Below are positions 1 through 30,797 of a DNA stretch of 64,000 bases, in pieces. The translations under genes and the position numbers were made by a program. This DNA is from Escherichia coli (GTDB taxonomy: Bacteria > Pseudomonadota > Gammaproteobacteria > Enterobacterales > Enterobacteriaceae). The DNA lies in NCBI RefSeq assembly GCF_022846255.1, contig NZ_AP025682.1. The stretch is one strand, 5' to 3'. Every line of letters begins with the position of its first letter. Position 1 is the first letter of the stretch. The notes beneath the pieces were generated by a model that was not told where the DNA came from, ran no database searches, and saw nothing but the letters and a program-made list of their open reading frames with translations.

Positions 1-1
1 A

Positions 2-550
2 ATGCAATACAACCATGACGAAACGAAAGCCAAAGCCGAATGGGATAAAGTGACGAGCAAACCCACCAGCCTGACGTTTCTCTATTCTGATAATGATCCG
101 AACTGGGAACCGATCGCTCTGGCGACACAATCCAGTCTCAACAAGCTGGGCATCAATGTGAAGCTGGAAAAGCTGGCGAACGCCACCATGCGCGACAGAG
201 TGGGTAAAGGTGATTACGACATCGCGATTGGCAACTGGAGTCCGGATTTTGCCGACCCGTATATGTTTATGAATTACTGGTTTGAGTCAGACAAAAAAGG
301 TCTGCCGGGTAACCGCTCGTTCTATGAAAACAGTGAGGTCGATAAGCTACTGCGCAATGCGCTAGCGACCACCGACCAGACGCAGCGTACCCGGGACTAC
401 CAGCAGGCACAGAAAATCGTCATTGATGACGCTGCTTATGTGTACCTGTTCCAGAAAAACTACCAACTGGCGATGAACAAAGAGGTGAAAGGCTTTGTGT
501 TCAATCCCATGCTGGAACAGGTCTTCAATATCAATACCATGAGTAAATAA
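2..550 (+). CDS. ddpA: D,D-dipeptide ABC transporter periplasmic binding protein, C-terminal 182 aa (5' end outside window)
   Basis: ORF runs off the window start; family-5 SBP C-terminal sequence; followed by ddpBCDF in operon order. Confidence 0.85.
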   Translation: MQYNHDETKAKAEWDKVTSKPTSLTFLYSDNDPNWEPIALATQSSLNKLGINVKLEKLANATMRDRVGKGDYDIAIGNWSPDFADPYMFMNYWFESDKKGLPGNRSFYENSEVDKLLRNALATTDQTQRTRDYQQAQKIVIDDAAYVYLFQKNYQLAMNKEVKGFVFNPMLEQVFNINTMSK

Positions 551-551
551 C

Positions 552-1574
552 GTGACCTTCTGGAGTATTTTACGCCAACGCTGCTGGGGGCTGGTGCTCG
601 TGGTGGCGGGCGTCTGTGTGATAACGTTTATTATCTCGCACCTGATCCCCGGCGATCCGGCGCGGTTACTGGCGGGTGACCGCGCCAGCGATGCTATCGT
701 GGATAATATTCGCCAGCAACTGGGACTGGACCAGCCACTGTACGTACAGTTTTACCGCTACGTCAGCGACCTGTTTCAGGGTGACCTAGGAACATCCATT
801 CGTACCGGGCGTCCGGTGCTGGAAGAGTTGCGCATATTTTTCCCGGCGACGCTGGAACTGGCTTTTTGTGCCCTGCTGCTGGCACTCCTGATTGGCATCC
901 CGCTGGGCATACTCTCTGCAGTCTGGCGAAATCGCTGGCTGGATCATCTGGTGCGAATAATGGCCATTACCGGAATCTCCACACCTGCGTTCTGGCTTGG
1001 GCTGGGCGTCATTGTGCTGTTTTATGGTCATCTGCAAATTCTTCCCGGCGGCGGAAGGCTTGATGACTGGCTGGATCCACCAACGCACGTTACCGGCTTT
1101 TATCTGCTCGATGCGCTGCTTGAAGGTAACGGTGAAGTCTTCTTCAATGCGCTGCAACATCTCATCTTACCGGCATTAACGCTGGCGTTCGTTCACCTGG
1201 GAATTGTCGCTCGCCAGATCCGCTCAGCTATGCTGGAACAATTGAGTGAAGATTACATTCGTACCGCCCGGGCCAGCGGCTTGCCCGGCTGGTATATCGT
1301 TTTATGTTATGCGCTACCCAATGCGTTGATCCCCTCGATTACCGTATTGGGTCTGGCGCTGGGCGATTTGTTGTATGGCGCAGTGCTCACCGAAACCGTT
1401 TTTGCCTGGCCCGGAATGGGTGCATGGGTAGTAACATCAATACAGGCGCTCGACTTCCCGGCAGTGATGGGCTTTGCCGTCGTGGTTTCGTTTGCTTATG
1501 TGCTGGTGAACCTGGTGGTGGATTTGCTCTATTTGTGGATTGATCCGCGTATCGAACGTGGAGGTGGTGAATGA
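552..1574 (+). CDS. ddpB: D,D-dipeptide ABC transporter permease
   Basis: 340-aa polytopic membrane ORF with GTG start 1 nt after the ddpA stop; DppB-like permease. Confidence 0.9.
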   Translation: MTFWSILRQRCWGLVLVVAGVCVITFIISHLIPGDPARLLAGDRASDAIVDNIRQQLGLDQPLYVQFYRYVSDLFQGDLGTSIRTGRPVLEELRIFFPATLELAFCALLLALLIGIPLGILSAVWRNRWLDHLVRIMAITGISTPAFWLGLGVIVLFYGHLQILPGGGRLDDWLDPPTHVTGFYLLDALLEGNGEVFFNALQHLILPALTLAFVHLGIVARQIRSAMLEQLSEDYIRTARASGLPGWYIVLCYALPNALIPSITVLGLALGDLLYGAVLTETVFAWPGMGAWVVTSIQALDFPAVMGFAVVVSFAYVLVNLVVDLLYLWIDPRIERGGGE

Positions 1575-2467
1575 TGCTAAGCGAGGAAACGTCAGCCGTG
1601 CGCCCACCAAAACAAACGCGATTTAACGGTGCAAAACTGGTATGGATGCTGAAAGGCAGCCCGCTTACCGTGACCGGCGCAGTCATCATTGTATTAATGC
1701 TACTGATGATGATTTTTTCACCGTGGCTGGCGACGCATGATCCCAACGCCATTGATTTAACCGCCCGCCTTTTGCCGCCTTCTGCGGCGCACTGGTTTGG
1801 CACCGATGAAGTGGGACGCGATCTGTTTAGCCGCGTACTGGTCGGCAGTCAGCAATCAATTCTCGCCGGATTAGTGGTGGTCGCCATTGCAGGTATGATG
1901 GGGTCGCTACTCGGGTGTCTATCCGGTGTGCTTGGCGGACGCGCAGACGCGATTATCATGCGCATCATGGACATTATGCTGTCGATTCCTTCGCTGGTGC
2001 TGACAATGGCACTGGCAGCCGCTCTCGGGCCGAGTTTGTTTAACGCCATGCTGGCGATTGCTATTGTGCGAATTCCCTTTTATGTGCGCCTGGCGCGGGG
2101 GCAAACATTAGTTGTCCGCCAGTACACTTACGTTCAGGCGGCGAAAACCTTTGGTGCGTCGCGTTGGCATCTGATCAACTGGCATATTTTACGTAACTCC
2201 CTGCCGCCGCTGATTGTGCAGGCATCGCTGGATATCGGTAGCGCGATTTTAATGGCCGCCACGTTGGGATTTATTGGCCTTGGTGCTCAACAACCGAGTG
2301 CTGAATGGGGGGCGATGGTGGCGAATGGTCGCAACTATGTGCTCGATCAATGGTGGTATTGCGCATTTCCGGGGGCAGCGATTTTGCTTACCGCCGTCGG
2401 GTTTAATCTCTTTGGCGATGGTATTCGCGATCTGCTTGACCCGAAAGCAGGAGGAAAGCAGTCATGA
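1571..2467 (+). CDS. ddpC: D,D-dipeptide ABC transporter permease
   Basis: 298-aa membrane ORF overlapping ddpB stop by 4 nt; DppC-like. Confidence 0.9.
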   Translation: MMLSEETSAVRPPKQTRFNGAKLVWMLKGSPLTVTGAVIIVLMLLMMIFSPWLATHDPNAIDLTARLLPPSAAHWFGTDEVGRDLFSRVLVGSQQSILAGLVVVAIAGMMGSLLGCLSGVLGGRADAIIMRIMDIMLSIPSLVLTMALAAALGPSLFNAMLAIAIVRIPFYVRLARGQTLVVRQYTYVQAAKTFGASRWHLINWHILRNSLPPLIVQASLDIGSAILMAATLGFIGLGAQQPSAEWGAMVANGRNYVLDQWWYCAFPGAAILLTAVGFNLFGDGIRDLLDPKAGGKQS

Positions 2468-3450
2468 CCCAACCCGTTCTGGACATTCAACAGCTGCATT
2501 TGAGTTTCCCCGGTTTTAACGGCGACGTTCACGCGCTCAACAATGTGTCATTGAAAATCAACCGCGGTGAAATTGTCGGTCTGGTGGGAGAATCCGGCTC
2601 GGGTAAATCAGTCACTGCAATGTTGATTATGCGTCTGTTACCGACGGGCAGTTATTGCGTACATCGGGGGCAGATTTCACTGCTGGGAGAAGATGCTCTT
2701 AACGCTCGGGAAAAGCAGCTTCGTCAGTGGCGCGGCGCACGAGTGGCGATGATCTTTCAGGAACCGATGACCGCCCTTAATCCGACACGTCGAATAGGTC
2801 TTCAGATGATGGACGTGATCCGCCATCATCAACCAATAAGTCGTCGGGAAGCCAGAGCTAAAGCGATTGCCCTGCTGGAAGAGATGCAAATCCCGGATGC
2901 CGTGGAAGTTATGTCGCGCTATCCGTTTGAGCTTTCAGGTGGTATGCGCCAGCGGGTAATGATTGCGCTGGCATTCTCCTGCGAGCCGCAATTGATTATT
3001 GCCGACGAACCGACTACGGCGCTGGACGTCACGGTACAGTTGCAGGTACTGCGTCTGCTTAAACATAAAGCCCGCGCCAGTGGAACTGCGGTACTGTTCA
3101 TCAGCCATGATATGGCCGTGGTGTCGCAACTGTGCGATAGCGTTTACGTGATGTATGCCGGAAGCGTGATTGAAAGCGGCGTGACGGCAGACGTTATCCA
3201 TCATCCCCGGCATCCGTATACCATTGGTTTGCTGCAATGCGCACCGGAACATGGAATACCGCGCCAGCCATTACTCGCTATTCCGGGGACGGTACCAAAC
3301 CTCACCCATTTGCCTGACGGCTGCGCTTTTCGCGATCGTTGCTATGCGGCAGGTGCACAGTGTGAAAACGTCCCGGTGCTAACAGCGTATGGTGACAACA
3401 ACCACCGCTGCGCCTGTTGGTATCCGCAGCAGGAGGTCATTAGTGTCTGA
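2464..3450 (+). CDS. ddpD: D,D-dipeptide ABC transporter ATP-binding protein
   Basis: 328 aa with Walker A GESGSGKS and ABC signature LSGGMRQR; 4-nt overlap with ddpC. Confidence 0.9.
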   Translation: MTQPVLDIQQLHLSFPGFNGDVHALNNVSLKINRGEIVGLVGESGSGKSVTAMLIMRLLPTGSYCVHRGQISLLGEDALNAREKQLRQWRGARVAMIFQEPMTALNPTRRIGLQMMDVIRHHQPISRREARAKAIALLEEMQIPDAVEVMSRYPFELSGGMRQRVMIALAFSCEPQLIIADEPTTALDVTVQLQVLRLLKHKARASGTAVLFISHDMAVVSQLCDSVYVMYAGSVIESGVTADVIHHPRHPYTIGLLQCAPEHGIPRQPLLAIPGTVPNLTHLPDGCAFRDRCYAAGAQCENVPVLTAYGDNNHRCACWYPQQEVISV

Positions 3451-4369
3451 TACATTATTAACGTTACGCGACGTCCATATCAATTTCCCTGCCCGAAAAA
3501 ACTGGCTTGGTAAAACTACGGAACATGTTCATGCCATCAATGGTATTGATTTACAGATCCGTCGTGGTGAAACCTTAGGGATCGTCGGTGAGTCAGGCTG
3601 CGGCAAAAGCACCCTCGCACAGCTTTTAATGGGTATGCTGCAACCGAGCCACGGGCAGTACATCCGTTCAGGATCACAACGCATTATGCAGATGGTGTTT
3701 CAGGACCCGCTCTCTTCGCTTAATCCGCGCTTACCGGTGTGGCGCATCATCACGGAACCGCTCTGGATTGCTAAGCGTAGTAGTGAACAACAGCGGCGAG
3801 CGTTGGCAGAGGAGCTGGCTGTGCAGGTGGGTATTCGTCCGGAGTATCTCGACCGCTTGCCTCATGCGTTTTCCGGCGGGCAGCGGCAACGTATCGCCAT
3901 TGCCAGAGCACTCTCTTCGCAGCCTGACGTGATTGTGCTTGATGAACCAACCTCGGCGCTGGATATCTCCGTGCAGGCGCAGATCCTCAATTTACTGGTA
4001 ACGCTACAGGAAAATCGCGAGCTGACTTATGTGCTGATTTCACACAATGTCTCCGTGATACGTCATATGAGCGATCGGGTGGCGGTGATGTATCTCGGAC
4101 AGATTGTGGAACTAGGAGACGCGCAACAGGTGCTGACAGCTCCGGCACATCCATACACCCGATTATTGCTGGATTCCCTCCCCGCCATTGATAAACCGCT
4201 GGAGGAAGAATGGGCATTACGTAAAACGGATCTGCCGGGAAACCGCACGTTTCCGCAAGGCTGTTTTTTCTACGAACGTTGCCCTCTGGCAACCCACGGA
4301 TGTGAAGTCCGACAATCATTAGCAATAAGGGAGGACGGACGTGAGCTCCGGTGCTGGCGGGCGCTGTAG
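3443..4369 (+). CDS. ddpF: D,D-dipeptide ABC transporter ATP-binding protein
   Basis: ORF track extends to 3389, but the conserved protein begins VSDTLLTLRD at a GTG preceded by aggagg and overlapping the ddpD stop; Walker A GESGCGKS and signature FSGGQRQR. Confidence 0.85.
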   Translation: MSDTLLTLRDVHINFPARKNWLGKTTEHVHAINGIDLQIRRGETLGIVGESGCGKSTLAQLLMGMLQPSHGQYIRSGSQRIMQMVFQDPLSSLNPRLPVWRIITEPLWIAKRSSEQQRRALAEELAVQVGIRPEYLDRLPHAFSGGQRQRIAIARALSSQPDVIVLDEPTSALDISVQAQILNLLVTLQENRELTYVLISHNVSVIRHMSDRVAVMYLGQIVELGDAQQVLTAPAHPYTRLLLDSLPAIDKPLEEEWALRKTDLPGNRTFPQGCFFYERCPLATHGCEVRQSLAIREDGRELRCWRAL

Positions 4370-4424
4370 AGATGCTAACAACGCATCAGGCATTCACGCG
4401 CCTGACGCGTCATCCGGCAATGCT

Positions 4425-5720: not shown

Positions 5721-5811
5721 ATCTGCTTTATACTTGGTACTTGACGCCCTGGCGGTAATGCAAAGACGATAAAAGCCCCCAGGGATGGATATTCAAAAAA
5801 GAGTGAGTGAC

Positions 5812-7509
5812 ATGGAACCAAAAACAAAAAAACAGCGTTCGCTTTATATCCCTTACGCTGGCCCTGTATTGCTGGAATTTCCGTTGTTGAATAAAGGCAG
5901 CGCCTTCAGCATGGAAGAACGCCGTAACTTCAACCTGCTGGGGTTACTGCCGGAAGTGGTCGAAACCATCGAAGAACAAGCGGAACGAGCATGGATCCAG
6001 TATCAGGGATTCAAAACCGAAATCGACAAACACATCTACCTGCGTAACATCCAGGACACTAACGAAACCCTCTTCTACCGTCTGGTAAACAATCATCTTG
6101 ATGAGATGATGCCAGTCATTTACACCCCAACCGTCGGCGCAGCCTGTGAGCGTTTTTCTGAGATCTACCGCCGTTCACGCGGTGTGTTTATCTCTTACCA
6201 GAACCGCCACAATATGGACGATATTCTGCAAAACGTACCAAACCATAATATCAAAGTGATTGTGGTGACTGACGGCGAACGTATTCTGGGGCTTGGTGAC
6301 CAGGGCATCGGCGGGATGGGCATTCCGATCGGTAAACTGTCGCTCTATACCGCCTGTGGCGGCATCAGTCCGGCCTATACCCTTCCGGTGGTGCTGGATG
6401 TCGGCACCAACAACCAACAGCTGCTTAACGATCCGCTGTATATGGGCTGGCGTAATCCGCGTATCACTGACGACGAATACTATGAATTCGTTGATGAATT
6501 TATCCAGGCTGTGAAACAACGCTGGCCGGACGTACTGTTGCAGTTTGAAGACTTCGCACAAAAAAATGCGATGCCGTTACTTAACCGCTATCGCAATGAA
6601 ATTTGTTCTTTTAACGATGACATTCAGGGCACCGCGGCGGTAACAGTCGGCACACTGATCGCAGCCAGCCGCGCGGCAGGCGGTCAGTTAAGCGAGAAAA
6701 AAATCGTCTTCCTTGGCGCAGGTTCAGCGGGATGCGGCATTGCCGAAATGATCATCGCCCAGACCCAGCGCGAAGGATTAAGCGAGGAAGCGGCGCGGCA
6801 GAAAGTCTTTATGGTCGATCGCTTTGGCCTGCTGACCGACAAGATGCCGAACCTGCTGCCTTTCCAGACCAAACTGGTGCAGAAGCGCGAAAACCTCATC
6901 GACTGGGATACCGACAGCGATGTGCTGTCACTGCTGGATGTGGTGCGCAATGTAAAACCAGATATTCTGATTGGCGTCTCAGGACAGACCGGACTGTTTA
7001 CGGAAGAGATCATCCGTGAGATGCATAAACACTGTCCGCGTCCGATCGTGATGCCGCTGTCTAACCCGACGTCACGCGTGGAAGCCACACCGCAGGACAT
7101 TATCGCCTGGACCGAAGGTAACGCGCTGGTCGCCACTGGCAGTCCATTTAATCCAGTGGTATGGAAAGATAAAATCTACCCTATCGCCCAGTGTAATAAC
7201 GCCTTTATTTTCCCGGGCATCGGGCTGGGTGTTATTGCTTCCGGCGCGTCACGTATCACCGATGAAATGCTGATGTCGGCAAGTGAAACGCTTGCTCAGT
7301 ATTCGCCGCTGGTCCTGAACGGCGAAGGTCTGGTACTGCCGGAACTGAAAGATATTCAGAAAGTATCCCGCGCAATTGCGTTTGCGGTTGGCAAAATGGC
7401 GCAGCAGCAAGGCGTGGCGGTGAAAACCTCCGCCGAAGCTCTGCAACAGGCCATTGATGATAATTTCTGGCAAGCCGAATACCGCGACTACCGCCGTACC
7501 TCCATCTAA
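5812..7509 (+). CDS. maeA: NAD-dependent malic enzyme
   Basis: 565-aa product beginning [23 protein letters not shown]; the track ORF start at 5785 is an upstream extension. Confidence 0.95.
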
Positions 7510-7642
7510 GCCTGCGCCCGGTAGTGAAGGCTACCGGGCAATTTCCCTCTCCCTTTTTCAGATCTCATCCATACTGGGTAGTGGCGAATAAATCTCATTT
7601 GCCTCACCTGCTATGCAGAACATCATCCGAAAAGGAGGAACT

Positions 7643-8653
7643 ATGAAGGCTGCAGTTGTTACGAAGGATCATCATGTTGACGTTACGGATAAAACACTGC
7701 GCTCACTGAAACATGGCGAAGCCCTGCTGAAAATGGAGTGTTGTGGTGTATGTCATACCGATCTTCATGTTAAGAATGGCGATTTTGGTGACAAAACCGG
7801 CGTGATTCTGGGACACGAAGGTATTGGTGTGGTGGCAGAAGTTGGCCCTGGTGTTACTTCATTAAAACCAGGCGATCGTGCCAGCGTGGCGTGGTTCTAT
7901 GAAGGATGCGGTCATTGCGAATACTGTAACAGTGGTAACGAAACGCTCTGCCGTTCAGTTAAAAATGCCGGATACAGCGTTGATGGCGGGATGGCGGAAG
8001 AGTGCATCGTGGTCGCCGATTACGCGGTAAAAGTGCCAGATGGTCTGGACTCGGCGGCGGCCAGCAGCATTACCTGTGCGGGGGTCACTACCTACAAAGC
8101 CGTTAAGCTGTCAAAAATTCGTCCAGGACAGTGGATTGCTATCTACGGTCTTGGCGGTCTGGGTAACCTCGCCCTGCAATACGCGAAGAATGTCTTTAAC
8201 GCCAAAGTGATCGCCATTGATGTCAATGATGAACAGTTAAAACTGGCAACCGAAATGGGTGCAGATTTAGCGATTAACTCACGCACCGAAGACGCCGCCA
8301 GAATTGTGCAGGAGAAAGCCGGTGGCGCTCACGCAGCGGTGGTGACAGCGGTAGCTAAAGCTGCGTTTAACTCGGCGGTGGATGCTGTCCGTGCAGGTGG
8401 TCGTGTCGTGGCTGTCGGTCTGCCGCCGGAGTCTATGAGCCTGGACATCCCACGGCTGGTGCTGGATGGTATTGAAGTGGTCGGTTCGCTGGTCGGCACG
8501 CGTCAGGATCTCACCGAAGCCTTCCAGTTTGCCGCCGAAGGCAAAGTGGTGCCGAAAGTCGCCCTGCGTCCGTTAGCGGACATCAACACCATCTTTACCG
8601 AGATGGAAGAAGGCAAAATCCGTGGCCGTATGGTGATTGATTTCCGTCGCTAA
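7643..8653 (+). CDS. adhP: zinc-dependent alcohol dehydrogenase (propanol-preferring)
   Basis: 336-aa product [11 protein letters not shown]... with GHEGIGVV zinc-ADH motif. Confidence 0.95.
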
Positions 8654-8798
8654 GAGGTCTTTGCTGCGACTGCCATGTTCGGGTCGCAGCATCGCACACT
8701 CTCCAACATGAAATGGCTAAATGGATTATTGTTGCGTAGGAAGGAACAATAATGATAGTGTTCCTGGTGAAGGAACGCTACTGAGAGTAAAGACACTG

Positions 8799-9083
8799 AT
8801 GAAAATGGCCAATCCTCCCCGCCCGGGAGACATTATTCAGGAATCACTGGACGAACTTAATGTCAGCCTGCGCGAGTTTGCCAGAGCAATGGAAATTGCT
8901 CCCTCAACGGCAAGCCGATTGCTGACCGGAAAAGCAGCTTTGACGCCAGAAATGGCAATTAAACTTTCCGTGGTGATCGGCAGTTCGCCGCAAATGTGGC
9001 TGAATCTGCAAAACGCCTGGAGCCTGGCAGAGGCTGAAAAAACGGTGGATGTGTCGCGACTGCGCCGTCTGGTTACGCAATAA
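8799..9083 (+). CDS. yddM: HTH (XRE-type) antitoxin-like DNA-binding protein, HigA-like
   Basis: About 94-aa product [45 protein letters not shown]... with a helix-turn-helix; exact start uncertain (track ORF begins at 8721). Confidence 0.8.
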
Positions 9084-9084
9084 A

Positions 9085-9112
9085 AAAATGGCGCTTCTTA
9101 AAGCGCCATTTT
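9085..9112. terminator. bidirectional Rho-independent terminator between convergent yddM and fdnI
   Basis: 12-bp perfect inverted repeat aaaatggcgctt / aagcgccatttt flanked by an A-run and a T-run. Confidence 0.6.
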
Positions 9113-9133
9113 CAGCTTAAAGTTCAAAAGAGA

Positions 9134-9787
9134 TTATATCCCTTCTTCACTCTCTTTTTTCGCTTCTGCCTTCTCGATTTCACGATACCAGCGCGGATGG
9201 TGTTTCTTCGCCCAGCGACGGCTCACCTTCCCTTCGATCATCCCTTTAATCGATCCTTTCACCCAGAATGCCATATACATATGGATCAGGATGGCGTGGA
9301 TCAGGATGATACCCGCAGCCGCGTGAATCAGCAGGCTATAACGGACAACCTGTATCGGGAAGTACTGCGCAAAGTACGGACGCCAGATAATCACCCCGGT
9401 CACCAGCAGCACGAAAATCATGCTCATGATCGACCAGAACATCATCTTTTGCCCGGCGTTGTACTTACCGACATCCGCCACTTTATGCTCATTGCCTTTC
9501 AATACTTCGACAATGTTCAACAGCCACGGAATATCTTTCTTATCCGGGATGTTGTGATGCACAAAACGCACAAACATAAACATCAGTGCGACGAAAATCG
9601 CAATGCCGAAGAACGGGTGCAAAATGCGTCCCATCTGCGGCGTACCGAAGGTTTGCGTCAGCCATTGCAGCGTCGGGAAGAAGAACGAAATCCCGGACAG
9701 CGCCACCAGGAAGAAGCAAATCACCACGGTCCAGTGACAGGCGCGATCAATAAACTTGGTGCGCACAATCATTTTCGACTTACTCAT
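9134..9787 (-). CDS. fdnI: formate dehydrogenase-N cytochrome b556 (gamma) subunit
   Basis: 217-aa membrane protein beginning [19 protein letters not shown]; 8-nt overlap with fdnH. Confidence 0.95.
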
Positions 9788-10664
9788 GATGCTCCTCCTC
9801 GTCATCGTCCACTTCCTTATTCGGGCCAATACCGATGTAGTGGAAAATCAACCCGGCAAAAGTGGCGATAAAGCCAGCCGCTGCCAGCGGTTTCAACGCG
9901 CCTTTCCACAAGTTCACCGATGTGTCGATCTTCGGATCTTTCGGCAGACCGTGATACAGCTCCGGCTGATCGGCGTGATGCAACACGTACATGACGTGCG
10001 TACCACCGACCCCTTCCGGGTTGTAGACGCCAGCATGTTCGTAACCACGCGCTTTCAGTTTCGCCACGCGCTGTTCCGCCAGCTCCATCATCTCCTTCTT
10101 GGTGCCGAAGTGGATAGCCCCGGTCGGACAGGTTTTCACACAAGCCGGTTCCTGGCCGACGCTGACGCGATCGACGCAGAGCGTGCATTTATATACCCGG
10201 TTATCCTCTTTGTTGAGGCGCGGAATATTAAACGGACACCCGGCAATGCAGTAACCACAGCCGATGCAGTTTTCCGACTGGAAATCGACAATCCCGTTAG
10301 CGTACTGAATGATTGCACCAGCAGACGGGCACGCCTTCAGGCAGCCCGGATCTTCACAGTGCATACAGCCGTCTTTACGGATCAGCCACTCCAGCTTGCC
10401 GTTCTGTTCGGTTTCGCTAAAGCGCATCACCGTCCAGGACTTGGCGCTCAGATCGGCGGGGTTATCGTAAACCCCGACGCAGTGCCCCACTTCATCACGG
10501 ATGTCGTTCCACTCCGAACACGCCACCTGACAGGCTTTACAGCCGATACAGGTGGAAACGTCGATAAGTTTTGCGACTTCTGCTTTGTAATCACGCACCT
10601 GAGAAGGCGGCGTGATGGAGTTAGTTGCGGACCTTTTGATAATGTCCTGCGTTTCCATAGCCAT
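9780..10664 (-). CDS. fdnH: formate dehydrogenase-N iron-sulfur (beta) subunit
   Basis: 294 aa with multiple CxxCxxCxxxC ferredoxin motifs and a C-terminal TM helix. Confidence 0.95.
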
Positions 10665-10676
10665 CTGTTCGCCCCC

Positions 10677-13600
10677 TTACGCCTTCTCGATGTTGACTAA
10701 GAACGCTTTATATTCCGGCGTTTGCGAGTTTGCATCACCGACATTCGGCGTCAGAGTGTTAGCGATATAACCTTTACGCGCGACACCCTCAAAGCCCCAG
10801 TGGATCGGAATACCCACCGTTTCAACCTGCTGACCGTTTACATTCAGCGGTTTCAGACGGCGCGTTACCACCGCCACCGCGCGGATAAAGCCACGCTTGC
10901 TTGAGACAGTGACACGATCGCCATTATTAATGCCTTTCGCCGCCGCCAGCGTTTCGCTGATTTCCACAAACTGTTCCGGCTGAGCAATTGCGTTGAGCAA
11001 CGCGTGCTTGGTCCAGGTGTGGAAGTGCTCGGTCAGACGATAGGTCGTACCCACATACGGGAACTGCTCTTTTTTACCCATCCGCAGCGCGTCTTGTTCA
11101 TACAGACGAACGACCGGGTTAGACACCACGTTCGGATGCAGCGGGTTAGTGCCCAGCGGCGTTTCAATCGGCTCGTAGTGTTCCGGGAACGGACCTTCCG
11201 CCATTTTGTTGATGGCAAACAGGCGTCCCATCCCTTCCGGCTGCATGATAAACGGTCCGGTTGGTGTACCTGGCGCGGCATTGCCGAAGTCCGGAATATC
11301 GTTACCCGTCCACTTGCTGCCGTTCCACTGAATCAGCATCCGTTTCGGATCCCACGGTTTACCGTTGATATCCGCCGAAGCACGGTTGTAGAGTACGCGA
11401 CGGTTGAGCGGCCACGCCCAGGCCCATCCCAGCGTATTCCCCAGACCAGATGGGTCAGAGTTATCGCGGTTAGCCATCTGGTTGCCCTGCTCTGTCCAGC
11501 TACCGGTGTAGATCCAGCAAGACGATGCGGTTGTACCGTCATCACGCAGATGCGCAAAGCTACTCAGCAACTGACCTTTCTTCGCAATCAGCACGCCATT
11601 GGCATCATAGAGATCTTCCAGCGCGTAGCCGTTGTTCTCTTTCGCTACTTCGTCAGATTGCGGTTCGTGCGGCTGCTTGTAGTTCCAGCTCATCTTCATC
11701 AGCGGTTCTACGCCTTTACCACCCTCGGCCTGGTACAGCTCGCGCAGATGATGGTAGATACCCGCCAGAATTTCGCCGTCGTTACGTGCTTCGCCCGGCG
11801 CGTCCTGACCTTTCCAGTGCCACTGCAACCAGCGACCGGAGTTAGCGATAGAACCATCTTCTTCAGCAAAGCAGGTCGAAGGCAGACGGAATACTTCAGT
11901 CTGAATAGATGCCGGATCGACATCGTTCGACTCGCCGTGGTTCTGCCAGAAGGTAGAGGTTTCAGTCACCAGCGGATCGATAACCACCATGTACTTCAGT
12001 TTGCTCAGGCAGCTCACCACTTTGTTTTTGTCCGGGAAGGACGCAACCGGGTTAAAGCCCTGGCAGAAATAACCGGTGACTTTGCCTTCGTCCATCATGT
12101 TGAAATACTTGATGACGTCGTAGGTCTGGTCCCACTTCGGCAGCCAGTCGTAGCCCCAGTTGTTCTCTTTCTGCGCGGCATCGCCGTAGAAAGATTTCAT
12201 CAGGCTAACGAAAAACTTCGGATAGTTGCTCCAGTAGTTCACCTGATCAGCCAGCGTCGCTTTCGGCGTGTTCGCTTCCAGATACGACTGCAAATCAACC
12301 TGTTTTTCTGACGGCAGCGTCAGATAACCTGGCAGGCTGGTAGAGAGCAGGCCTAAGTCAGTCAGGCCCTGAATGTTGGAGTGACCACGCAATGCGTTCA
12401 CGCCGCCACCGGCCATACCCATGTTACCGAGCAGCAACTGGATCATCGCCATCGTACGGATGTTCTGCGCACCCACGGTGTGCTGCGTCCAGCCCAGCGC
12501 GTACAGGAAGGTGGTTGTGCGATCCGGTGCGCTGGTGGAGGCCAGCACTTCACACACTTTCAGGAAGTCGGCTTTTGGCGTACCGCAAATGTTTTCTACT
12601 ACGTCCGGCGTGTAGCGGGAAACGTGCGCTTTCAGCAGATTCCATACACAGCGCGGATGAGTCAGCGTGTCATCGCGTTTCGCATAGCCGTTTTCATCGA
12701 ACTGATAGTTCCAGGACGACTTATCGTATTGACGTTTTTCAGCGTCGTAGCCGCTGAACAGACCGTCTTCGAAAGCAAAATCATCACGCACCAGCAGGCT
12801 GGCGTTGGTGTAATGCTTAACGTATTCGGCGTTGATTTTGTTGTTTTCGATCAGGTAGCGCAAAACGCCAGACAGGAACGTAATGTCCGTACCGGAACGA
12901 ATAGGTGCGTAAATATCCGCCACAGAAGCGGTACGCGTAAAACGGGGATCGACAACGATCAAGGTTGCATCGTTGTTGTTTTTCGCTTCCATCGCCCAGC
13001 GGAAACCGACGGGATGCGCTTCAGCAGCGTTACCGCCCATCACCATTACGACGTTAGCGTTTTTGATATCCACCCAGTGGTTGGTCATCGCACCGCGACC
13101 AAATGTTGGAGCAAGACTTGCTACCGTTGGTCCGTGTCAGACGCGCGCCTGGTTGTCTACCGCCAGCATCCCGAGGGAGCGGGCAAATTTTTGAGTCAGC
13201 ATCCCGGTTTCGTTGCTGGCACCGGAAGCACACAGCATACCGGTAGAAAGCCAACGGTTTACCGTTACGCCCTGCTCGTTCTTTTCAATAAAGTTAGCGT
13301 CACGGTCGGCTTTCATCAGCTTCGCAATACGGGAGAATGCTTCTTCCCAGCTAATGCGCTGCCATTTGTCAGAACCTGGCGCACGATATTCCGGGTAGCG
13401 CAGACGGTTTTCGCTGTTGACGTAATCCAGCAAACCGGCCCCTTTCGGGCACAGCGCACCACGGCTTACCGGATGATCCGGGTCACCTTCAATGTGATAA
13501 ATCGCTTCTCTGGCGTTTTTCGCGCCATCACCCAGGCTATACATCAATAGCCCGCAACCTACGGAACAGTATGTGCAGGTGTTACGGATCTCTTTCGCGC

Positions 13601-13724
13601 GTAATAATTTGTAGTTTCGCGCCTGAGCCAGTGCTTGCTTCGGGGCAAAGCCCAATGCTGCTACTGTTGTTCCCGCCATACCGCCCGCGCAGATTTTAAA
13701 AAATTGTCTGCGACTGACGTCCAT
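10677..13724 (-). CDS. fdnG: formate dehydrogenase-N catalytic (alpha) subunit, selenocysteine-containing
   Basis: Two track ORFs (13137..13724 and 10677..13088) are in the same frame, separated only by a TGA at 13137..13139; N-terminus MDVSRRQFFKICAGG is a twin-arginine signal; total 1016 codons. Confidence 0.95.
13089..13136 (-). other. region expected to carry the SECIS stem-loop directing Sec insertion at the fdnG UGA
   Basis: Immediately 3' of the in-frame UGA on the mRNA; inferred from bacterial selenoprotein biology, structure not folded here. Confidence 0.5.
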
Positions 13725-13843
13725 TGCTTTCCTCTTTTTTCAGGGGTATTACTGCGCGAGGAAACTAACAGTAAAATTCTGAATCTTTTTGCGCGAAATC
13801 AAAAAGAACACGTGTTTGCCACAAAATAATCCTCCTGCGCAAA

Positions 13844-13857
13844 TTGACCTACCTCAA
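13844..13857 (-). promoter_or_regulatory. candidate FNR site in the fdnG-yddG divergent intergenic region
   Basis: TTGAC-N4-CTCAA resembles the TTGAT-N4-ATCAA consensus, about 120 bp upstream of the fdnG start; fdnG is known to be FNR-activated. Confidence 0.35.
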
Positions 13858-13956
13858 TAGCGGTAGAAAAACGCACCACTGCCTGACAGGCCAGTTAAAA
13901 AAAATGCTATAAAATTCAGCTTAATTTTTAACGGCAAGAGAGACAAAACAGCGAGC

Positions 13957-14838
13957 ATGACACGACAAAAAGCAACGCTCATAGGGCTAATAGCGATCGT
14001 CCTGTGGAGCACGATGGTAGGATTGATTCGCGGTGTCAGTGAGGGACTCGGCCCGGTCGGCGGCGCAGCTGCTATCTATTCATTAAGCGGGCTGCTGTTA
14101 ATCTTCACGGTTGGATTTCCGCGTATTCGGCAGATCCCGAAAGGCTATTTACTCGCCGGGAGTCTGTTATTCGTCAGCTATGAAATCTGTCTGGCGCTTT
14201 CCTTAGGGTATGCGGCGACCCGTCATCAGGCGATTGAAGTGGGGATGGTGAACTATCTGTGGCCCAGCCTGACAATTCTCTTTGCCATTCTGTTTAATGG
14301 TCAGAAAACCAACTGGCTGATTGTACCAGGATTATTATTAGCCCTGGTCGGCGTCTGCTGGGTGTTAGGCGGTGACAATGGGTTACATTATGATCAAATT
14401 ATTAATAATATCACCACCAGCCCATTGAGTTATTTCCTGGCGTTCATTGGGGCGTTTATCTGGGCAGCCTACTGCACAGTAACGAATAAATACGCACGCG
14501 GATTTAACGGAATTACCGTTTTTGTCCTGCTAACGGGAGCAAGTCTGTGGGTTTACTATTTTCTTACGCCACAACCAGAAATGGTATTTAGCACGCCCGT
14601 CATGATTAAACTCATCTCTGCGGCATTTACCTTAGGATTTGCTTATGCTGCATGGAATGTCGGTATATTACATGGCAACGTCACCATAATGGCGGTAGGT
14701 TCGTATTTTACGCCCGTCCTTTCCTCAGCGCTTGCAGCCGTGCTGCTCAGCGCCCCGCTGTCGTTCTCGTTCTGGCAAGGCGCGCTAATGGTCTGCGGCG
14801 GTTCCCTGCTCTGCTGGCTGGCGACACGTCGTGGCTAA
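13957..14838 (+). CDS. yddG: aromatic amino acid exporter (DMT family)
   Basis: 293-aa polytopic membrane protein matching remembered YddG. Confidence 0.9.
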   Translation: MTRQKATLIGLIAIVLWSTMVGLIRGVSEGLGPVGGAAAIYSLSGLLLIFTVGFPRIRQIPKGYLLAGSLLFVSYEICLALSLGYAATRHQAIEVGMVNYLWPSLTILFAILFNGQKTNWLIVPGLLLALVGVCWVLGGDNGLHYDQIINNITTSPLSYFLAFIGAFIWAAYCTVTNKYARGFNGITVFVLLTGASLWVYYFLTPQPEMVFSTPVMIKLISAAFTLGFAYAAWNVGILHGNVTIMAVGSYFTPVLSSALAAVLLSAPLSFSFWQGALMVCGGSLLCWLATRRG

Positions 14839-15110
14839 AATAATTGTCGGGTCTACGGCCCGGCAGTTAATCAGATAAATTCTGACAATATTAAAAAATA
14901 AATTTCAAATACCAGAAAGTCATTTTAGTTACATTTAGTAACACATATCTGTCTGTTTATTCCACATTCTGCCCCCGCAGTTACGCTTTCTTATCTATTC
15001 TTCTAATCAGCACTTCACCTGATTCATCCTTAATTCTAATAACTGGCTATTGCGCCTTACCTCCTGTTTTGTCTTTTTTTCATTACCAATGTGTGCATGT
15101 GAGGAACAAT

Positions 15111-16499
15111 ATGGCACTGCAAAATGAGAAAAATAGTCGTTATCTTTTACGCGACTGGAAACCAGAAAATCCGGCCTTCTGGGAAAATAAAGGAAAGCAT
15201 ATTGCACGAAGAAACCTCTGGATATCAGTCAGTTGCCTACTTCTTGCCTTCTGTGTCTGGATGCTATTTAGCGCAGTTACTGTTAATCTCAATAAAATCG
15301 GTTTTAATTTCACTACCGATCAACTCTTTTTATTAACCGCATTACCCTCCGTTTCTGGCGCATTATTGCGTGTCCCCTACTCCTTTATGGTGCCTATATT
15401 CGGTGGACGCCGATGGACGGTTTTTAGTACTGCAATCCTGATTATTCCTTGCGTCTGGCTCGGAATTGCCGTGCAAAATCCGAATACCCCTTTTGGGATA
15501 TTTATCGTTATCGCTTTGCTATGCGGTTTTGCAGGTGCGAACTTTGCTTCGAGCATGGGCAATATCAGTTTCTTCTTTCCAAAAGCCAAACAAGGGAGCG
15601 CTCTTGGGATTAATGGCGGATTAGGAAACTTAGGTGTAAGTGTGATGCAGCTGGTTGCACCGCTGGTCATTTTTGTCCCCGTATTTGCCTTTCTCGGCGT
15701 CAATGGCGTACCGCAGGCCGACGGTTCGGTGATGTCGCTGGCGAATGCCGCATGGATTTGGGTGCCATTACTGGCGATTGCCACGATCGCCGCCTGGTCA
15801 GGGATGAATGATATCGCCAGTTCACGCGCCTCAATTGCCGACCAGCTCCCTGTCTTGCAACGCCTGCATCTCTGGCTGCTGAGCCTGCTTTATCTTGCCA
15901 CCTTCGGTTCGTTTATCGGTTTTTCTGCGGGTTTTGCCATGCTGGCAAAAACCCAGTTCCCGGATGTGAATATTCTGCGCCTGGCGTTCTTTGGCCCATT
16001 TATCGGTGCCATCGCGCGATCGGTTGGTGGTGCTATTTCCGATAAATTCGGCGGCGTGCGGGTGACGTTGATCAACTTCATTTTTATGGCGATTTTCAGC
16101 GCCCTGCTGTTCCTTACCTTACCGGGCACAGGCTCCGGTAATTTCATCGCATTTTACGCCGTATTTATGGGGCTGTTTCTGACCGCGGGTCTGGGAAGTG
16201 GTTCTACTTTCCAGATGATCGCCGTCATCTTTCGCCAGATAACAATTTATCGGGTGAAGATGAAAGGCGGTAGTGATGAGCAAGCTCAAAGAGAAGCCGT
16301 CACCGAAACGGCAGCCGCTCTGGGCTTTATCTCAGCCATTGGCGCAGTGGGCGGCTTTTTTATTCCGCAGGCGTTTGGCATGTCGCTCAATATGACCGGC
16401 TCTCCGGTGGGCGCGATGAAAGTGTTTTTAATCTTCTACATCGTTTGTGTGCTACTGACCTGGCTGGTTTATGGTCGGCGGAAGTTCAGCCAAAAATAA
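15111..16499 (+). CDS. narU: nitrate/nitrite transporter (MFS)
   Basis: 462-aa product beginning MALQNEKNSRYLLRDWKPENPAFWENKGK; NarK-like. Confidence 0.95.
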   Translation: MALQNEKNSRYLLRDWKPENPAFWENKGKHIARRNLWISVSCLLLAFCVWMLFSAVTVNLNKIGFNFTTDQLFLLTALPSVSGALLRVPYSFMVPIFGGRRWTVFSTAILIIPCVWLGIAVQNPNTPFGIFIVIALLCGFAGANFASSMGNISFFFPKAKQGSALGINGGLGNLGVSVMQLVAPLVIFVPVFAFLGVNGVPQADGSVMSLANAAWIWVPLLAIATIAAWSGMNDIASSRASIADQLPVLQRLHLWLLSLLYLATFGSFIGFSAGFAMLAKTQFPDVNILRLAFFGPFIGAIARSVGGAISDKFGGVRVTLINFIFMAIFSALLFLTLPGTGSGNFIAFYAVFMGLFLTAGLGSGSTFQMIAVIFRQITIYRVKMKGGSDEQAQREAVTETAAALGFISAIGAVGGFFIPQAFGMSLNMTGSPVGAMKVFLIFYIVCVLLTWLVYGRRKFSQK

Positions 16500-16507
16500 G
16501 AGATCGA

Positions 16508-16530
16508 TGCCTGACACGTCTTATCAGGCT
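16508..16530. repeat. REP-like palindromic element in the narU-narZ spacer
   Basis: gcctgacacgtcttatcaggc resembles the REP unit seen at 24228. Confidence 0.3.
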
Positions 16531-16593
16531 ACAACCGTGTCTCATCCGACAAGGCATCAGATCCCAATTCATTCCTGGAGCAGGAGTTATGTC

Positions 16594-19500
16594 ATGAGTA
16601 AACTTTTGGATCGCTTTCGCTACTTCAAACAAAAGGGCGAAACCTTTGCCGATGGTCACGGACAGGTGATGCATAGCAACCGCGACTGGGAGGACAGCTA
16701 TCGCCAGCGTTGGCAGTTCGACAAAATCGTGCGTTCCACCCACGGTGTTAACTGTACAGGCTCCTGCAGCTGGAAAATCTACGTTAAAAATGGTCTGGTG
16801 ACCTGGGAAATCCAACAGACCGACTACCCGCGCACTCGCCCTGACCTGCCAAATCATGAACCTCGCGGCTGCCCGCGTGGCGCAAGTTACTCCTGGTATC
16901 TCTACAGCGCTAACCGCCTGAAATACCCGCTCATTCGTAAACGACTGATTGAACTGTGGCGCGAAGCCCTCAAACAACACAGCGATCCGGTACTGGCGTG
17001 GGCATCGATTATGAACGATCCGCAAAAGAGCCTGAGCTACAAACAAGTGCGTGGACGCGGTGGCTTTATCCGCTCCAACTGGCAGGAGCTAAATCAGCTG
17101 ATTGCCGCCGCTAACGTCTGGACCATCAAAACTTACGGCCCGGATCGCGTTGCCGGTTTCTCGCCGATTCCGGCGATGTCGATGGTTTCTTACGCCGCCG
17201 GAACACGCTATCTGTCGTTGTTAGGTGGCACCTGTTTAAGCTTCTACGACTGGTATTGCGACCTGCCGCCCGCCTCGCCGATGACCTGGGGCGAGCAAAC
17301 CGACGTACCGGAATCTGCCGACTGGTATAACTCCAGTTACATCATCGCCTGGGGGTCTAACGTACCGCAGACACGTACGCCGGACGCCCATTTCTTTACC
17401 GAAGTACGCTACAAAGGCACTAAAACCATCGCCATTACCCCTGACTACTCTGAAGTGGCCAAATTGTGCGACCAGTGGCTGGCACCGAAACAAGGCACTG
17501 ATAGTGCCCTGGCAATGGCAATGGGCCATGTCATTTTAAAAGAGTTTCATCTCGATAATCCCAGCGATTATTTTATCAACTACTGCCGCCGCTACAGCGA
17601 CATGCCGATGCTGGTAATGCTGGAACCTCGCGACGACGGCAGCTACGTTCCCGGGCGCATGGTCCGCGCATCTGACCTGGTGGATGGACTGGGCGAAAGC
17701 AATAATCCGCAGTGGAAAACCGTGGCAGTTAATACCGCAGGTGAATTGGTAGTGCCGAACGGTTCGATTGGTTTTCGCTGGGGAGAAAAAGGCAAATGGA
17801 ACCTGGAATCCATTGCCGCCGGTACGGAAACCGAATTGTCGTTAACCCTGCTCGGTCAACATGACGCCGTTGCAGGCGTGGCCTTCCCCTACTTTGGCGG
17901 CATTGAAAATCCACATTTTCGCAGCGTAAAACACAATCCTGTCCTGGTGCGCCAATTGCCCGTTAAAAACCTGACATTAGCCGATGGTAGCACCTGTCCG
18001 GTGGTCAGCGTTTATGATTTGGTACTGGCGAATTACGGCCTCGATCGCGGGCTGGAAGATGAAAACAGCGCGAAAGATTACGCTGAAATCAAACCTTATA
18101 CCCCTGCCTGGGGCGAGCAAATTACCGGCGTTCCGCGCCAGTATATTGAAACCATCGCCCGTGAATTTGCCGATACCGCCCATAAAACGCATGGGCGCTC
18201 GATGATTATTCTCGGCGCAGGTGTTAACCACTGGTATCACATGGACATGAACTACCGCGGGATGATCAATATGCTGATCTTCTGCGGTTGTGTCGGGCAA
18301 AGCGGTGGCGGCTGGGCACACTATGTCGGTCAGGAAAAACTGCGCCCGCAAACCGGCTGGCTGCCTCTGGCCTTTGCGCTCGACTGGAACCGACCACCGC
18401 GCCAGATGAACAGCACCTCGTTTTTCTACAATCACTCCAGCCAGTGGCGCTATGAAAAAGTCACCGCGCAGGAATTGCTCTCACCGCTCGCCGATGCCAG
18501 TAAATACAGCGGTCACCTGATTGATTTCAACGTTCGCGCCGAACGTATGGGCTGGCTACCTTCTGCGCCGCAGCTGGGGCGTAACCCGCTCTCCCTGAAA
18601 GCCGAAGCCGACAAGGCCGGATTGTCACCCGCCGAATTTACCGTCCAGGCACTGAAGTCAGGCGAATTACGCATGGCCTGCGAACAGCCGGACAACGGCA
18701 GCAACCATCCGCGTAACCTGTTTGTCTGGCGTTCAAACCTGCTTGGCTCTTCCGGCAAGGGCCACGAGTATATGCAGAAGTATCTGCTGGGTACGAAAAG
18801 TGGCATTCAGGGGGAAGAACTTGGACCGACGGAGGGAATCCAACCAGAAGAAGTCGAGTGGCAAACTGCGGCGATTGAAGGCAAGCTCGACCTGCTGGTG
18901 ACGCTCGACTTCCGCATGTCCAGTACCTGCCTGTTCTCCGATATCGTTCTGCCCACCGCCACCTGGTACGAAAAAGACGATATGAATACCTCGGATATGC
19001 ATCCATTTATTCATCCGCTTTCTGCGGCGGTCGATCCGGCGTGGGAATCACGCAGCGACTGGGAAATCTACAAAGGTATCGCTAAAGCCTTTTCGCAAGT
19101 GTGCATAGGGCATCTCGGCAAAGAAACCGACGTGGTATTACAACCACTGCTGCATGACTCCCCGGCAGAGCTTTCACAGCCGTGTGAAGTGCTCGACTGG
19201 CGCAAAGGTGAATGCGATCTGATTCCAGGCAAAACCGCGCCGAATATTGTGGCGGTGGAGCGCGACTACCCTGCTACCTATGAACGCTTTACCTCACTCG
19301 GGCCATTGATGGACAAACTTGGCAACGGCGGTAAAGGGATTTCGTGGAATACCCAGGATGAAATTGATTTCCTCGGTAAACTCAATTACACCAAGCGTGA
19401 TGGCCCGGCAAAGGGGCGTCCGCTGATTGACACCGCCATTGACGCATCAGAAGTGATTCTGGCACTGGCACCGGAAACCAACGGCCATGTTGCAGTCAAA

Positions 19501-24220: not shown

Positions 24221-24227
24221 AACCGTT

Positions 24228-30427: not shown

Positions 30428-30747
30428 ATGGCTGAACACGATATTACGCCAGAAGTCGCCATTTCCAAAACACAGCGCCGCTATAAAGTCGGCTATGTCA
30501 GAGCCCGCCACATAAACAGCAAACCACGTACTACTCACGACACCCCAGCCTGAACCTTAAGGGCGACTGGCTGAAAGAGGCCGGATTTGATACCGGACGG
30601 GGTGTCACGGTGAAGATTTCGGAGGGGTGCCTGACCATCATCGCTGACAGTGACGAGGTGCAGGAACTGCGGGAGGAACTTTATCAGGTTAAACAGGTGG
30701 TTAAGGGGATGCGGAACGGGATGTTTAGTGTGCTGAACGAGAATTAA
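30428..30747 (+). pseudogene. symE-like type I toxin gene (AbrB-fold), apparently frameshifted
   Basis: 41 codons from ATG 30428 (MAEHDITPEVAISKTQRRYKVGYVRARHINSKP...) end at TGA about 30551; the SymE core LNLKGDWLKEAGFDTGRGVTVKISEGCLTII... continues in the -1 frame to TAA about 30745; restoring one C near 30550 would fuse them. Confidence 0.6.
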
Positions 30748-30797
30748 ATAATAAAAAAGCCGGGGAGATTTAAAATCTTCCCGGCTTTCTTTATCAT

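Follow-up and report, generated by a model that had tools for sequence, protein, structure and literature searches.

The in-frame UGA codon of Escherichia coli fdnG and the SECIS hairpin that adjoins it

Two open reading frames (ORFs) follow each other in the same frame at a formate dehydrogenase locus of Escherichia coli and are separated by a single TGA. Does this codon end translation, or is it the known selenocysteine (Sec) codon of formate dehydrogenase-N, with a bacterial SECIS hairpin adjoining it in the mRNA? The second reading had been proposed in a preliminary description of the locus, and it was followed up here in the window (the whole stretch of DNA analysed, 64,000 nucleotides), focusing on the identity of the gene, the architecture and folding of the hairpin and its conservation among relatives. 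The features of the locus are listed in Table 1.

Table 1. Features of the fdn locus and of the SECIS hairpin in the 64-kb window
Feature	Position	Strand	Basis
fdnI, gamma (cytochrome b) subunit	9134..9787	minus	NF007558, 486.1 bits versus cut-off 339
fdnH, beta (Fe-S) subunit	9780..10664	minus	TIGR01582, 482.5 bits versus cut-off 334.7; colinear with CFT073 fdnH
fdnG, alpha (catalytic) subunit of formate dehydrogenase-N	10677..13724	minus	translation, megablast, TIGR01553, 1kqf_A
Bacterial SECIS, Rfam SECIS_3 (RF01989)	13084..13142	minus	84.3 bits versus gathering score 63; full model 1-59
Lower helix, 3' arm, mRNA positions 38-48	13092..13102	minus	minimum free energy (MFE) structure, relatives
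Apical stem-loop GGUAGCAAGUCUUGCUCC, mRNA positions 15-32 (from U of UGA)	13108..13125	minus	folds, relatives, PMC8659212
Lower helix, 5' arm, mRNA positions 3-13	13127..13137	minus	MFE structure
Selenocysteine codon UGA, codon 196 (SeCys196 of Fdh-N)	13137..13139	minus	flanking halves align to 1kqf_A, TIGR01553
Predicted Tat export motif S-R-R-Q-F-F-K, FdnG codons 4-10	13695..13715	minus	read from translation
yddG-fdnG intergenic region, 232 bp	13725-13956		

Identity of the gene and of its internal UGA

Translation of the minus-strand frame from 13724 to 10677 gave 1016 codons (1015 residues and the terminal stop), and its sole internal stop was the TGA of codon 196, which appears as 'tca' on the plus strand. 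The ORF list cut this frame into a piece of 195 aa (13137..13724, minus strand) and a piece of 803 aa (10677..13088, minus strand). The preliminary description, which left the strand unstated, is thus accurate for the stop-to-stop frames, and so is its remark that ORF calling of this kind mis-splits selenoprotein genes. The second call starts 16 sense codons past the TGA, at the first ATG (13088), a gap due solely to the tool's need for a start codon to reopen an ORF; the 16 codons encode conserved formate dehydrogenase (FDH) sequence. Searched separately against PDB, the two halves aligned to residues 1-195 and 197-1015 of 1kqf_A (entry title 'formate dehydrogenase, nitrate-inducible, major subunit'), leaving residue 196 between them at the UGA. 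TIGR01553 matched the N-terminal part at profile positions 1-194 (279.5 bits) and the C-terminal part alone at positions 196-1009 (1316.4 bits, cut-off 814.2), the UGA corresponding to profile position 195. With the halves of both alignments flanking it, the TGA is the Sec codon of formate dehydrogenase-N that had been named. The Sec196 residue is visible in the 1KQF structure.

The nearest complete genomes for the window gene were B2-type strains (CFT073 and Nissle 1917), in which fdnG is annotated as one CDS and is 99.5% identical by megablast. Identity to fdnG of K-12 (b1474; Fdh-N 1KQF), the same gene with the same UGA codon, operon and neighbours, was 98.0% at the nucleotide level, with 60 nucleotide differences and four amino acid changes (F342L, D352E, A366E and A666S), all distant from the UGA; the 59-nt SECIS was identical. 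It was also identical in K-12 fdoG (b3894), which has the same Sec196 and an equal SECIS_3 score, so that the hairpin alone cannot separate the two genes, and the equivalog model TIGR01553 takes in both FdnG and FdoG. That the gene is this paralog, encoding the aerobic formate dehydrogenase-O, is nevertheless extremely unlikely and was rejected on sequence identity, gene context and the gamma-subunit model. Identity to K-12 fdoG was only 74.7% in nucleotides and 77% in amino acids, and the window protein has 1015 aa versus 1016 for fdoG. fdnH and fdnI come after fdnG, yddG lies upstream and narU/narZ farther out, whereas fdoG belongs to an fdoGHI-fdhE operon with fdhD upstream at another chromosomal site; fdhD and fdhE are absent at the present locus. 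The gamma subunit passed NF007558 (model name 'formate dehydrogenase-N subunit gamma') and failed the FdoI-type model NF007924 (270.1 bits, cut-off 341). The naming of the gene as fdnG in the preliminary description is therefore borne out by its identity to K-12 fdnG, the gamma model and the yddG/narU/narZ context. Codons 4-10 appear to fit the twin-arginine (Tat) consensus S/T-R-R-x-F-L-K and are a predicted export signal.

If the TGA were a genuine stop, as UGA normally is and as the two pieces from mechanical ORF calling would suggest, fdnG would be split or pseudogenised and would yield a product of 195 aa, perhaps along with one of 803 aa from a restart at ATG 13088. Several results speak against a stop at this codon. 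Of 5433 records matching the 71-nt stretch around the UGA, all but one (5432) had a best match with an identity of 99% or more; these covered 5425 of the 5426 complete E. coli genomes, and the TGA with its context is identical in essentially all of these 5425 genomes, with one CDS annotated. In a comparative set obtained with a DNA pattern requiring TGA, this codon recurred at the homologous position in at least 120 loci, distant phyla included. It aligns to residue 196 of a solved full-length protein, it is followed by the 16 codons of conserved FDH sequence, and a curated SECIS model matches directly 3' of it. On the strength of the single-CDS annotation, the recurrence in distant phyla and the conservation over E. 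coli genomes a pseudogene or real stop was rejected, and we give it next to no credence. Furthermore, the fdnG UGA was demonstrated as a selenocysteine codon in 1991 according to a reference given in PMC13188914, and literature cited via the same article reported a full-length, selenium-containing FdnG of ~110 kDa for E. coli. We are nearly certain that the frame from 13724 to 10677 is E. coli fdnG and encodes the catalytic subunit (of the molybdopterin/selenocysteine type) of formate dehydrogenase-N, the respiratory enzyme inducible by nitrate, with UGA 196 decoded as Sec. Expression of such a gene would be induced by nitrate and anaerobiosis through a NarL/FNR-dependent promoter.

Architecture and folding of the SECIS hairpin

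The SECIS_3 match (E = 1.4e-18, calculated over all 64 kb of the window) starts 3 nt upstream of the UGA and reaches 56 nt beyond the first base of this codon. This E value, together with the near-universal 71-nt identity across E. coli genomes, indicates that the combination of UGA and hairpin is not due to chance. The interval first singled out (13089-13139) consists of the UGA and the next 48 nt of mRNA, which is essentially the hairpin. The hairpin lies wholly inside the fdnG frame, from the A of the UGA to 48 nt past the first base of that codon, and the 5' arm of its lower helix covers this A and the His-Gly-Pro-Thr codons. The apical stem-loop begins 11 nt past the UGA and has the form GG-U-AGCAA-GUC-UUGCU-CC, with U17 (window 13123) bulging out between 2 bp and 5 bp and with G23, U24 and C25 (13117-13115) forming the loop.

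In the fdhF mRNA, the determinants for SelB are an apical stem-loop of ~17 nt situated 11 nt past the UGA, a bulged U17 and the loop bases G23 and U24 (PMC8659212), and the fdnG hairpin has the same spacing, U17, G23 and U24. By analogy, its apical stem-loop would be the SelB-binding minihelix. The bSECIS model described in PMC13188914 comprises a loop of 3-9 nt, an upper stem of 4-16 bp, a G in the first two loop positions, a UGA-to-loop distance of 16-37 nt and an MFE of -7.5 kcal/mol or lower. The fdnG hairpin, with its 3-nt loop opening with G and then U, its 7-bp upper stem containing one bulge and its 19 nt between UGA and loop, falls within these constraints. K-12 fdhF (b4079), the experimentally dissected prototype, encodes a cytoplasmic enzyme with Sec at residue 140 and matches the sister model SECIS_2 (RF01988), on which the window element scored 28.8 bits, below the gathering score of 70. 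The fdhF and fdnG elements share 40 of 60 nt, the 11-nt spacer, G15-G16, the bulged U17 and the loop bases G23-U24; above the bulge, however, fdhF has 4 bp and a 4-nt loop (GGUC), whereas the window fdnG has 5 bp and a 3-nt loop (GUC). An alignment with the fdhF and fdoG elements, which the preliminary description had suggested, thus gave the same architecture in the former and 59 identical nucleotides in the latter.

RNA folding downstream of the UGA had been suggested as well, and its outcome was mixed. The hairpin does fold, with an MFE of -14.6 kcal/mol, and is kept in a 101-nt context; as evidence on its own the fold is weak, its energy not going beyond that of shuffled sequences. Against dinucleotide shuffles the energy was not discriminating (z = -0.76 for 51 nt, -1.44 for 48 nt and -0.15 for 101 nt), and 41 of 200 shuffles equalled or bettered the -14.6 kcal/mol fold. 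Only the 18-nt minihelix alone, among the folds tested, reached z = -2.06. Since the experimentally defined fdhF SECIS scores equally badly (z = -0.67), fold energy was dropped as a criterion and was not counted against the element. In the 101-nt fold, positions -4..-1 pair with 51-54, an outer extension that resembles the outermost 5 bp of Rfam SECIS_2. It was rejected, since pair counts in 86 fdnG-type sequences among the matches listed did not support it: the invariant Met codon occupies positions 52-54, and the one pair free to vary, -1/51, was paired in 64%.

Conservation and covariation among relatives

The comparative set of at least 120 loci was collected with a DNA pattern fixing TGA, CAYGGNCC and GGNGCNATGWSNAAY; as TGA and the conserved codons on either side of it were prerequisites of a match, the set says nothing on the frequency of Cys at the site, and invariance was counted only in columns that the pattern left free. 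Covariation was analysed in 70 distinct fdnG/fdoG-type sequences among the matches listed, from Proteobacteria, Acidobacteria, Actinomycetota and others. In these 70 relatives the apical helix was 97.3% paired, and compensatory changes were found at three of its seven pairs (18-30, 19-29 and 21-27). The covariation score was 0.224, compared with 0.111 in shuffles (0 of 500 reached 0.224) and at most 0.092 when the partners were slid. Among the matches listed, the lower helix was ~82% paired in relatives (82.9% in the Rfam register and 81.6% in the ViennaRNA register). The ViennaRNA register of the window element differs from the Rfam consensus, and the Rfam register gives A-C and A-G mismatches there; the lower helix probably differs between lineages.

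Covariation and invariance bear on another explanation, namely that the UGA is read through independently of a SECIS, by near-cognate Trp-tRNA or Cys-tRNA, and that the hairpin is a by-product of the conserved peptide HGPTVASLAPTFGRG. The peptide past the UGA is indeed highly conserved, and the free energy of the hairpin is unremarkable against shuffles. Peptide conservation, however, fails to account for the invariant synonymous third positions at column 15 (G in 81 of 82 sequences among the matches listed) and column 24 (U in 82 of 82). Compensatory double changes swap amino acids in step and yet keep the pairs, as when GCA..UGC becomes UCC..GGG (Ala/Ala to Ser/Gly). The invariant bases, moreover, are the published SelB contacts (PMC8659212), with U17 in 82/82, U24 in 82/82 and G23 in 81/82 of the pattern-free columns among the matches listed. 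SECIS-independent read-through is consequently scarcely credible. The case for a SECIS in fdnG is carried by conserved architecture and covariation, not by fold energy. The claim that such a hairpin adjoins the UGA stands on the SECIS_3 match, the fdhF-like architecture and the covariation across phyla; the combination of a missing hairpin and divergence from FdnG around the site, named beforehand as what would speak against it, was not what we found, the hairpin being present and 59 nt being identical to K-12 fdnG.

Decoding of the UGA and significance of the element

In the proposed mechanism, the UGA of codon 196 would be read as selenocysteine with no termination. The ~45 nt past it fold into the bacterial SECIS hairpin, whose apical minihelix (positions 15-32, with the bulged U17 and the loop bases G23/U24) would bind the C-terminal domain of SelB, a specialised elongation factor that carries GTP and Sec-tRNA(Sec). 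While the ribosome melts the lower helix and brings the UGA to its A site, the tethered SelB would deliver Sec-tRNA(Sec) in competition with RF2. Genes selA, selB, selC and selD are absent from the 64-kb window, and so are tRNA genes; by analogy with the known E. coli sel system, they would be expected elsewhere in the genome, and SelB binding and actual Sec insertion would be expected as well. None of the results argues against the reading of fdnG as a Sec/SECIS gene.

The longest run identical between the window fdnG and K-12 fdoG was 71 nt, from 3 nt before the UGA (-3 to +65), and an identical 60-mer was found in 21 loci from other genera among the matches listed, whose 180-nt flanks were 71-96% identical. 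In Enterobacterales, 60-71 nt around the UGA are frozen at synonymous sites across genera, in both fdnG and fdoG; the loci of the synonymous-codon table were picked by core identity, coinciding with a choice by flank protein identity, and are a biased sample. The frozen stretch far exceeds the 17-18 nt required by the SelB-binding minihelix. From this synonymous freeze and the non-Rfam register of the lower helix, an additional, undescribed constraint on the fdnG/fdoG element may be proposed, which is compatible with the data, not required by them, and in our judgement improbable. It could stem from tuned kinetics of lower-helix unwinding, from a further partner (RNA or protein), or from gene conversion between fdnG and fdoG that is repeatedly seeded at this site.

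The Sec codon and SECIS of fdnG are already known and are textbook material, and the initial reading of the locus was correct but ordinary. It carries little weight as a discovery, the hairpin being a curated Rfam family and the gene being annotated as a single CDS in RefSeq. Its value is practical: the locus can serve genome scans as a positive control, and it illustrates how stop-to-stop ORF calling splits selenoprotein genes. Where two ORFs of one frame are linked by a single TGA, there is good reason to look for a SECIS. Z-scores of free energy are poorly suited to that purpose, since the validated fdhF element fails on them too, whereas covariance models and the analysis of covariation succeed.

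The reading frame and identity of fdnG

The frame 13724..10677 on the minus strand comprises 1016 codons, and upon translation stops were found only at codon 196 and at the end. That fdnG appears as two adjacent ORFs of one frame with a single TGA between them, as the preliminary description had it, was confirmed by the ORF listing and by this translation. The 803-aa ORF begins 16 sense codons past the TGA only because the ORF caller resumes at the first ATG, and the interval 13089-13139 first assigned to the feature therefore represents the UGA and the following 48 nt of mRNA. The preliminary description was correct on all points but did not give the strand, which is the minus strand.

Coordinates of the features in the window
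Feature	Position	Strand	Basis
ORF, 195 aa	13137..13724	-	ORF listing
ORF, 803 aa	10677..13088	-	ORF listing, frame shared with the 195-aa ORF
Internal TGA	13139..13137	-	codon 196, read from sequence
SECIS_3 (RF01989)	13084..13142	-	84.3 bits, gathering score 63, E = 1.4e-18
71-nt identical run	13072..13142 (fdnG nt 583-653; K-12 fdoG locus L005, 371..441 (-))	-	paralog alignment
isrA (RF01385)	30499..30617	-	96.4 bits
Region surrounding isrA, with the SymE-family toxin frame	30428..30760	+	
yddM, HigA-family antitoxin	8721..9083	+	ORF

Megablast recovered the 3048-nt frame from 5425 of the 5426 complete E. coli genomes; it was closest (99.5%) to CFT073, Nissle 1917 and their relatives, in whose records it is one CDS annotated as 'fdnG: formate dehydrogenase-N subunit alpha'. 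It shares 98.0% nucleotide identity with K-12 fdnG, with four amino-acid differences, versus 74.7% nucleotide and 77% amino-acid identity with the K-12 paralog fdoG. Window 9082-25724 and CFT073 are colinear from fdnI to yddG, narU and on through narZ to yddH, yddG lying upstream of fdnG and divergent. Downstream, fdnH matched TIGR01582 (482 bits), and fdnI exceeded the cut-off of the gamma model specific to FDH-N (486 bits vs 339) but not that of the FdoI-type model (270 bits vs 341). Identity, genomic context and gamma-subunit models exclude the reading that the gene is fdoG.

Both halves of the gene matched NCBIfam TIGR01553; the N-terminal half covered profile positions 1-194, and the C-terminal half, covering 196-1009, reached 1316 bits by itself (cut-off 814). 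In PDB 1kqf_A ('formate dehydrogenase, nitrate-inducible, major subunit') the two halves correspond to residues 1-195 and 197-1015, so that the UGA falls at residue 196. The assignment to fdnG with the UGA at its Sec codon was thus borne out by K-12 identity, TIGR01553 and the 1kqf_A alignment. In translation the N-terminus of FdnG is MDVSRRQFFK, which we take to be a twin-arginine export motif.

The SECIS hairpin and its conservation

SECIS_3 gave one of the two Rfam matches at the gathering threshold in the whole window; the sister model SECIS_2, built on fdhF, scored only 28.8 bits at the fdnG element. The 51 nt from the UGA folded in ViennaRNA into a single hairpin of -14.6 kcal/mol, which was retained in a 101-nt context. 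Numbered from the U of UGA, positions 3-13 pair with 38-48 in the lower helix, and the apical minihelix consists of G15 G16, bulged U17, A18-A22, the loop G23 U24 C25, U26-U30 and C31 C32. In the fdhF prototype the upper stem-loop is 17 nt long and lies 11 nt from the UGA, with bulged U17 and loop G23 and U24, where U17 and G23 are SelB contacts (PMC8659212); counted in the same way, the fdnG hairpin matches these features, and it also conforms to the general bSECIS model in each of its four constraints (PMC13188914). An extra outer helix hinted at by the 101-nt fold was rejected as lacking comparative support.

Free energy does not set the hairpin apart from coding sequence, and comparative evidence decides. 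The z-scores were -0.76 (51 nt), -1.44 (48 nt) and -2.06 (18-nt minihelix), and the experimentally defined fdhF SECIS, at -0.67, was no better than fdnG. Folding, proposed earlier as a check, thus recovered the hairpin, but its stability was not discriminating.

The longest identical run between the window fdnG and K-12 fdoG is 71 nt (runner-up 36 nt), extending from 3 nt 5' of the UGA to 65 nt past its first base. In 5432 of 5433 E. coli records the best match to this 71-mer reached 99% identity or more, and the median copy number per genome was two. The identity of the paralogs may reflect RNA constraint alone, or gene conversion as well. In length, the conserved stretch around the UGA exceeds the minimal SelB-binding minihelix several-fold.

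One genome per GTDB species was scanned with a pattern fixing only TGA, CAYGGNCC and a distal GGNGCNATGWSNAAY, which yielded at least 120 loci; among the matches listed there were 82 distinct 60-mers (70 fdnG/fdoG-type, 12 fdhF-type), spanning Gamma-, Beta- and Alphaproteobacteria, Acidobacteria, Desulfovibrio, Actinomycetota and others. The window-identical 60-mer occurred in at least 21 loci of other genera, including Citrobacter, Enterobacter, Klebsiella, Yersinia, Photorhabdus and Providencia, with 180-nt flanks 71-96% identical; in several enterobacterial genera besides Escherichia it recurred in both paralogs. In the gapless alignment of the 70 fdnG/fdoG-type sequences among the matches listed, the apical helix was 97.3% paired, with compensatory changes at 18-30 (GC/AU/CG/GU), 19-29 (GC/UG) and 21-27 (AU/CG/GC); its covariation score was 0.224, against 0.111 for column shuffles (0 of 500 as high) and no more than 0.092 for slid partners. 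The lower helix was weaker (about 82% paired among these matches), and its register in the MFE fold of the window sequence differs from the Rfam consensus.

Among the matches listed, columns free of pattern constraint were invariant or nearly so at U17 (82/82), U24 (82/82) and G23 (81/82), coinciding with reported SelB-binding bases. Synonymous third positions fall at columns 15 and 24, and some compensatory changes shift both amino acids together, e.g. Ala..Ala to Ser..Gly. Invariant synonymous sites and compensatory changes exclude a pseudo-hairpin produced by a conserved peptide. The SECIS hairpin 3' of the UGA, anticipated in the preliminary description, is therefore supported by the SECIS_3 match, fold, fdhF-like architecture and comparative evidence. 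A true stop or an fdnG pseudogene is excluded, since the TGA is universally conserved together with its context, relatives have the gene annotated as one CDS, a full-length protein of solved structure aligns with it, and the SECIS model matches.

An fdhF-type locus of Haemophilus haemolyticus (L046, 3070..3129 (+)) carries the sole U instead of G at position 15 among the matches listed. Its inferred partner in the fdhF-type register (15-31, 16-30) is position 31, which is A in this locus and C in the other fdhF-type sequences; the apical minihelix would thus have undergone a compensatory G-C to U-A change at its base.

Other features of the window

The second Rfam gathering-level match, isrA, runs antisense across the 5' portion of a 'SymE family type I addiction module toxin' gene and adjoins an Rhs/DUF6531-Vgr (type VI secretion) cluster; this neighbourhood was taken from homology to annotated NZ_AP025214.2 (99% over 1.9 kb). 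The N-terminal ~41 codons of the toxin frame and its remainder lie in different frames, and the ORF listing shows no ORF of at least 50 aa there. The toxin frame appears broken, and isrA looks like a SymR-like antisense RNA retained next to a frameshifted toxin gene.

In the region 8690..9111 next to yddM, the window lacks ~320 bp relative to CFT073 (104 bp vs 422 bp) and matches it only in the yddM part (95%). A RelE/ParE-family toxin gene directly adjoins yddM in CFT073, and the antitoxin gene appears to be an orphan in the window. Positions 1..4381, without a match to the CFT073 region past osmC, correspond to the ddp (D-Ala-D-Ala dipeptide ABC transporter) genes, which follow osmC in other E. 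coli strains; judging from these matches, lineages differ here by a presence/absence polymorphism. Across the window, identity to complete E. coli genomes varies: fdnG is best matched by B2-type strains (99.5%), and best-record identity is only ~98.2% over 1-9200 and ~97.5% over 25700-50000. The source strain may belong to a lineage that has no close representative among complete RefSeq genomes, or be a mosaic.

Probable mechanism of Sec insertion and comparison with known elements

From established knowledge of the E. coli Sec-decoding system, summarised in PMC13188914, we infer how Sec would be inserted at fdnG. SelB with GTP and Sec-tRNA(Sec) would bind the apical part of the hairpin, the lower helix would be opened by the oncoming ribosome, and with the UGA in the A site the tethered SelB would hand over Sec-tRNA(Sec). 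Sec196 would then act in the Mo-bis-MGD active site of Fdh-N, which Tat exports to the periplasm. No tRNA genes were found within the 64-kb window.

The window element is sequence-identical to the Sec196 codon and SECIS of K-12 fdnG. The suggested alignment with fdhF and fdoG elements had a clear outcome: K-12 fdnG and fdoG share all 59 nt with the window element, and 40 of 60 nt agree with the fdhF SECIS, with U17, G23 and U24 in matching columns. Above the bulged U the window has 5 bp and a 3-nt loop, whereas fdhF has 4 bp and a 4-nt loop. The element belongs to Rfam SECIS_3 and is, in function, closely analogous to the SECIS of fdhF. The fdnG Sec codon was reportedly described earlier by Berg et al. 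in 1991. Sec196 of fdnG and its SECIS are already known, including from PDB 1KQF; the finding is correct but ordinary, and its use is limited to that of a positive control for selenoprotein-aware ORF calling.
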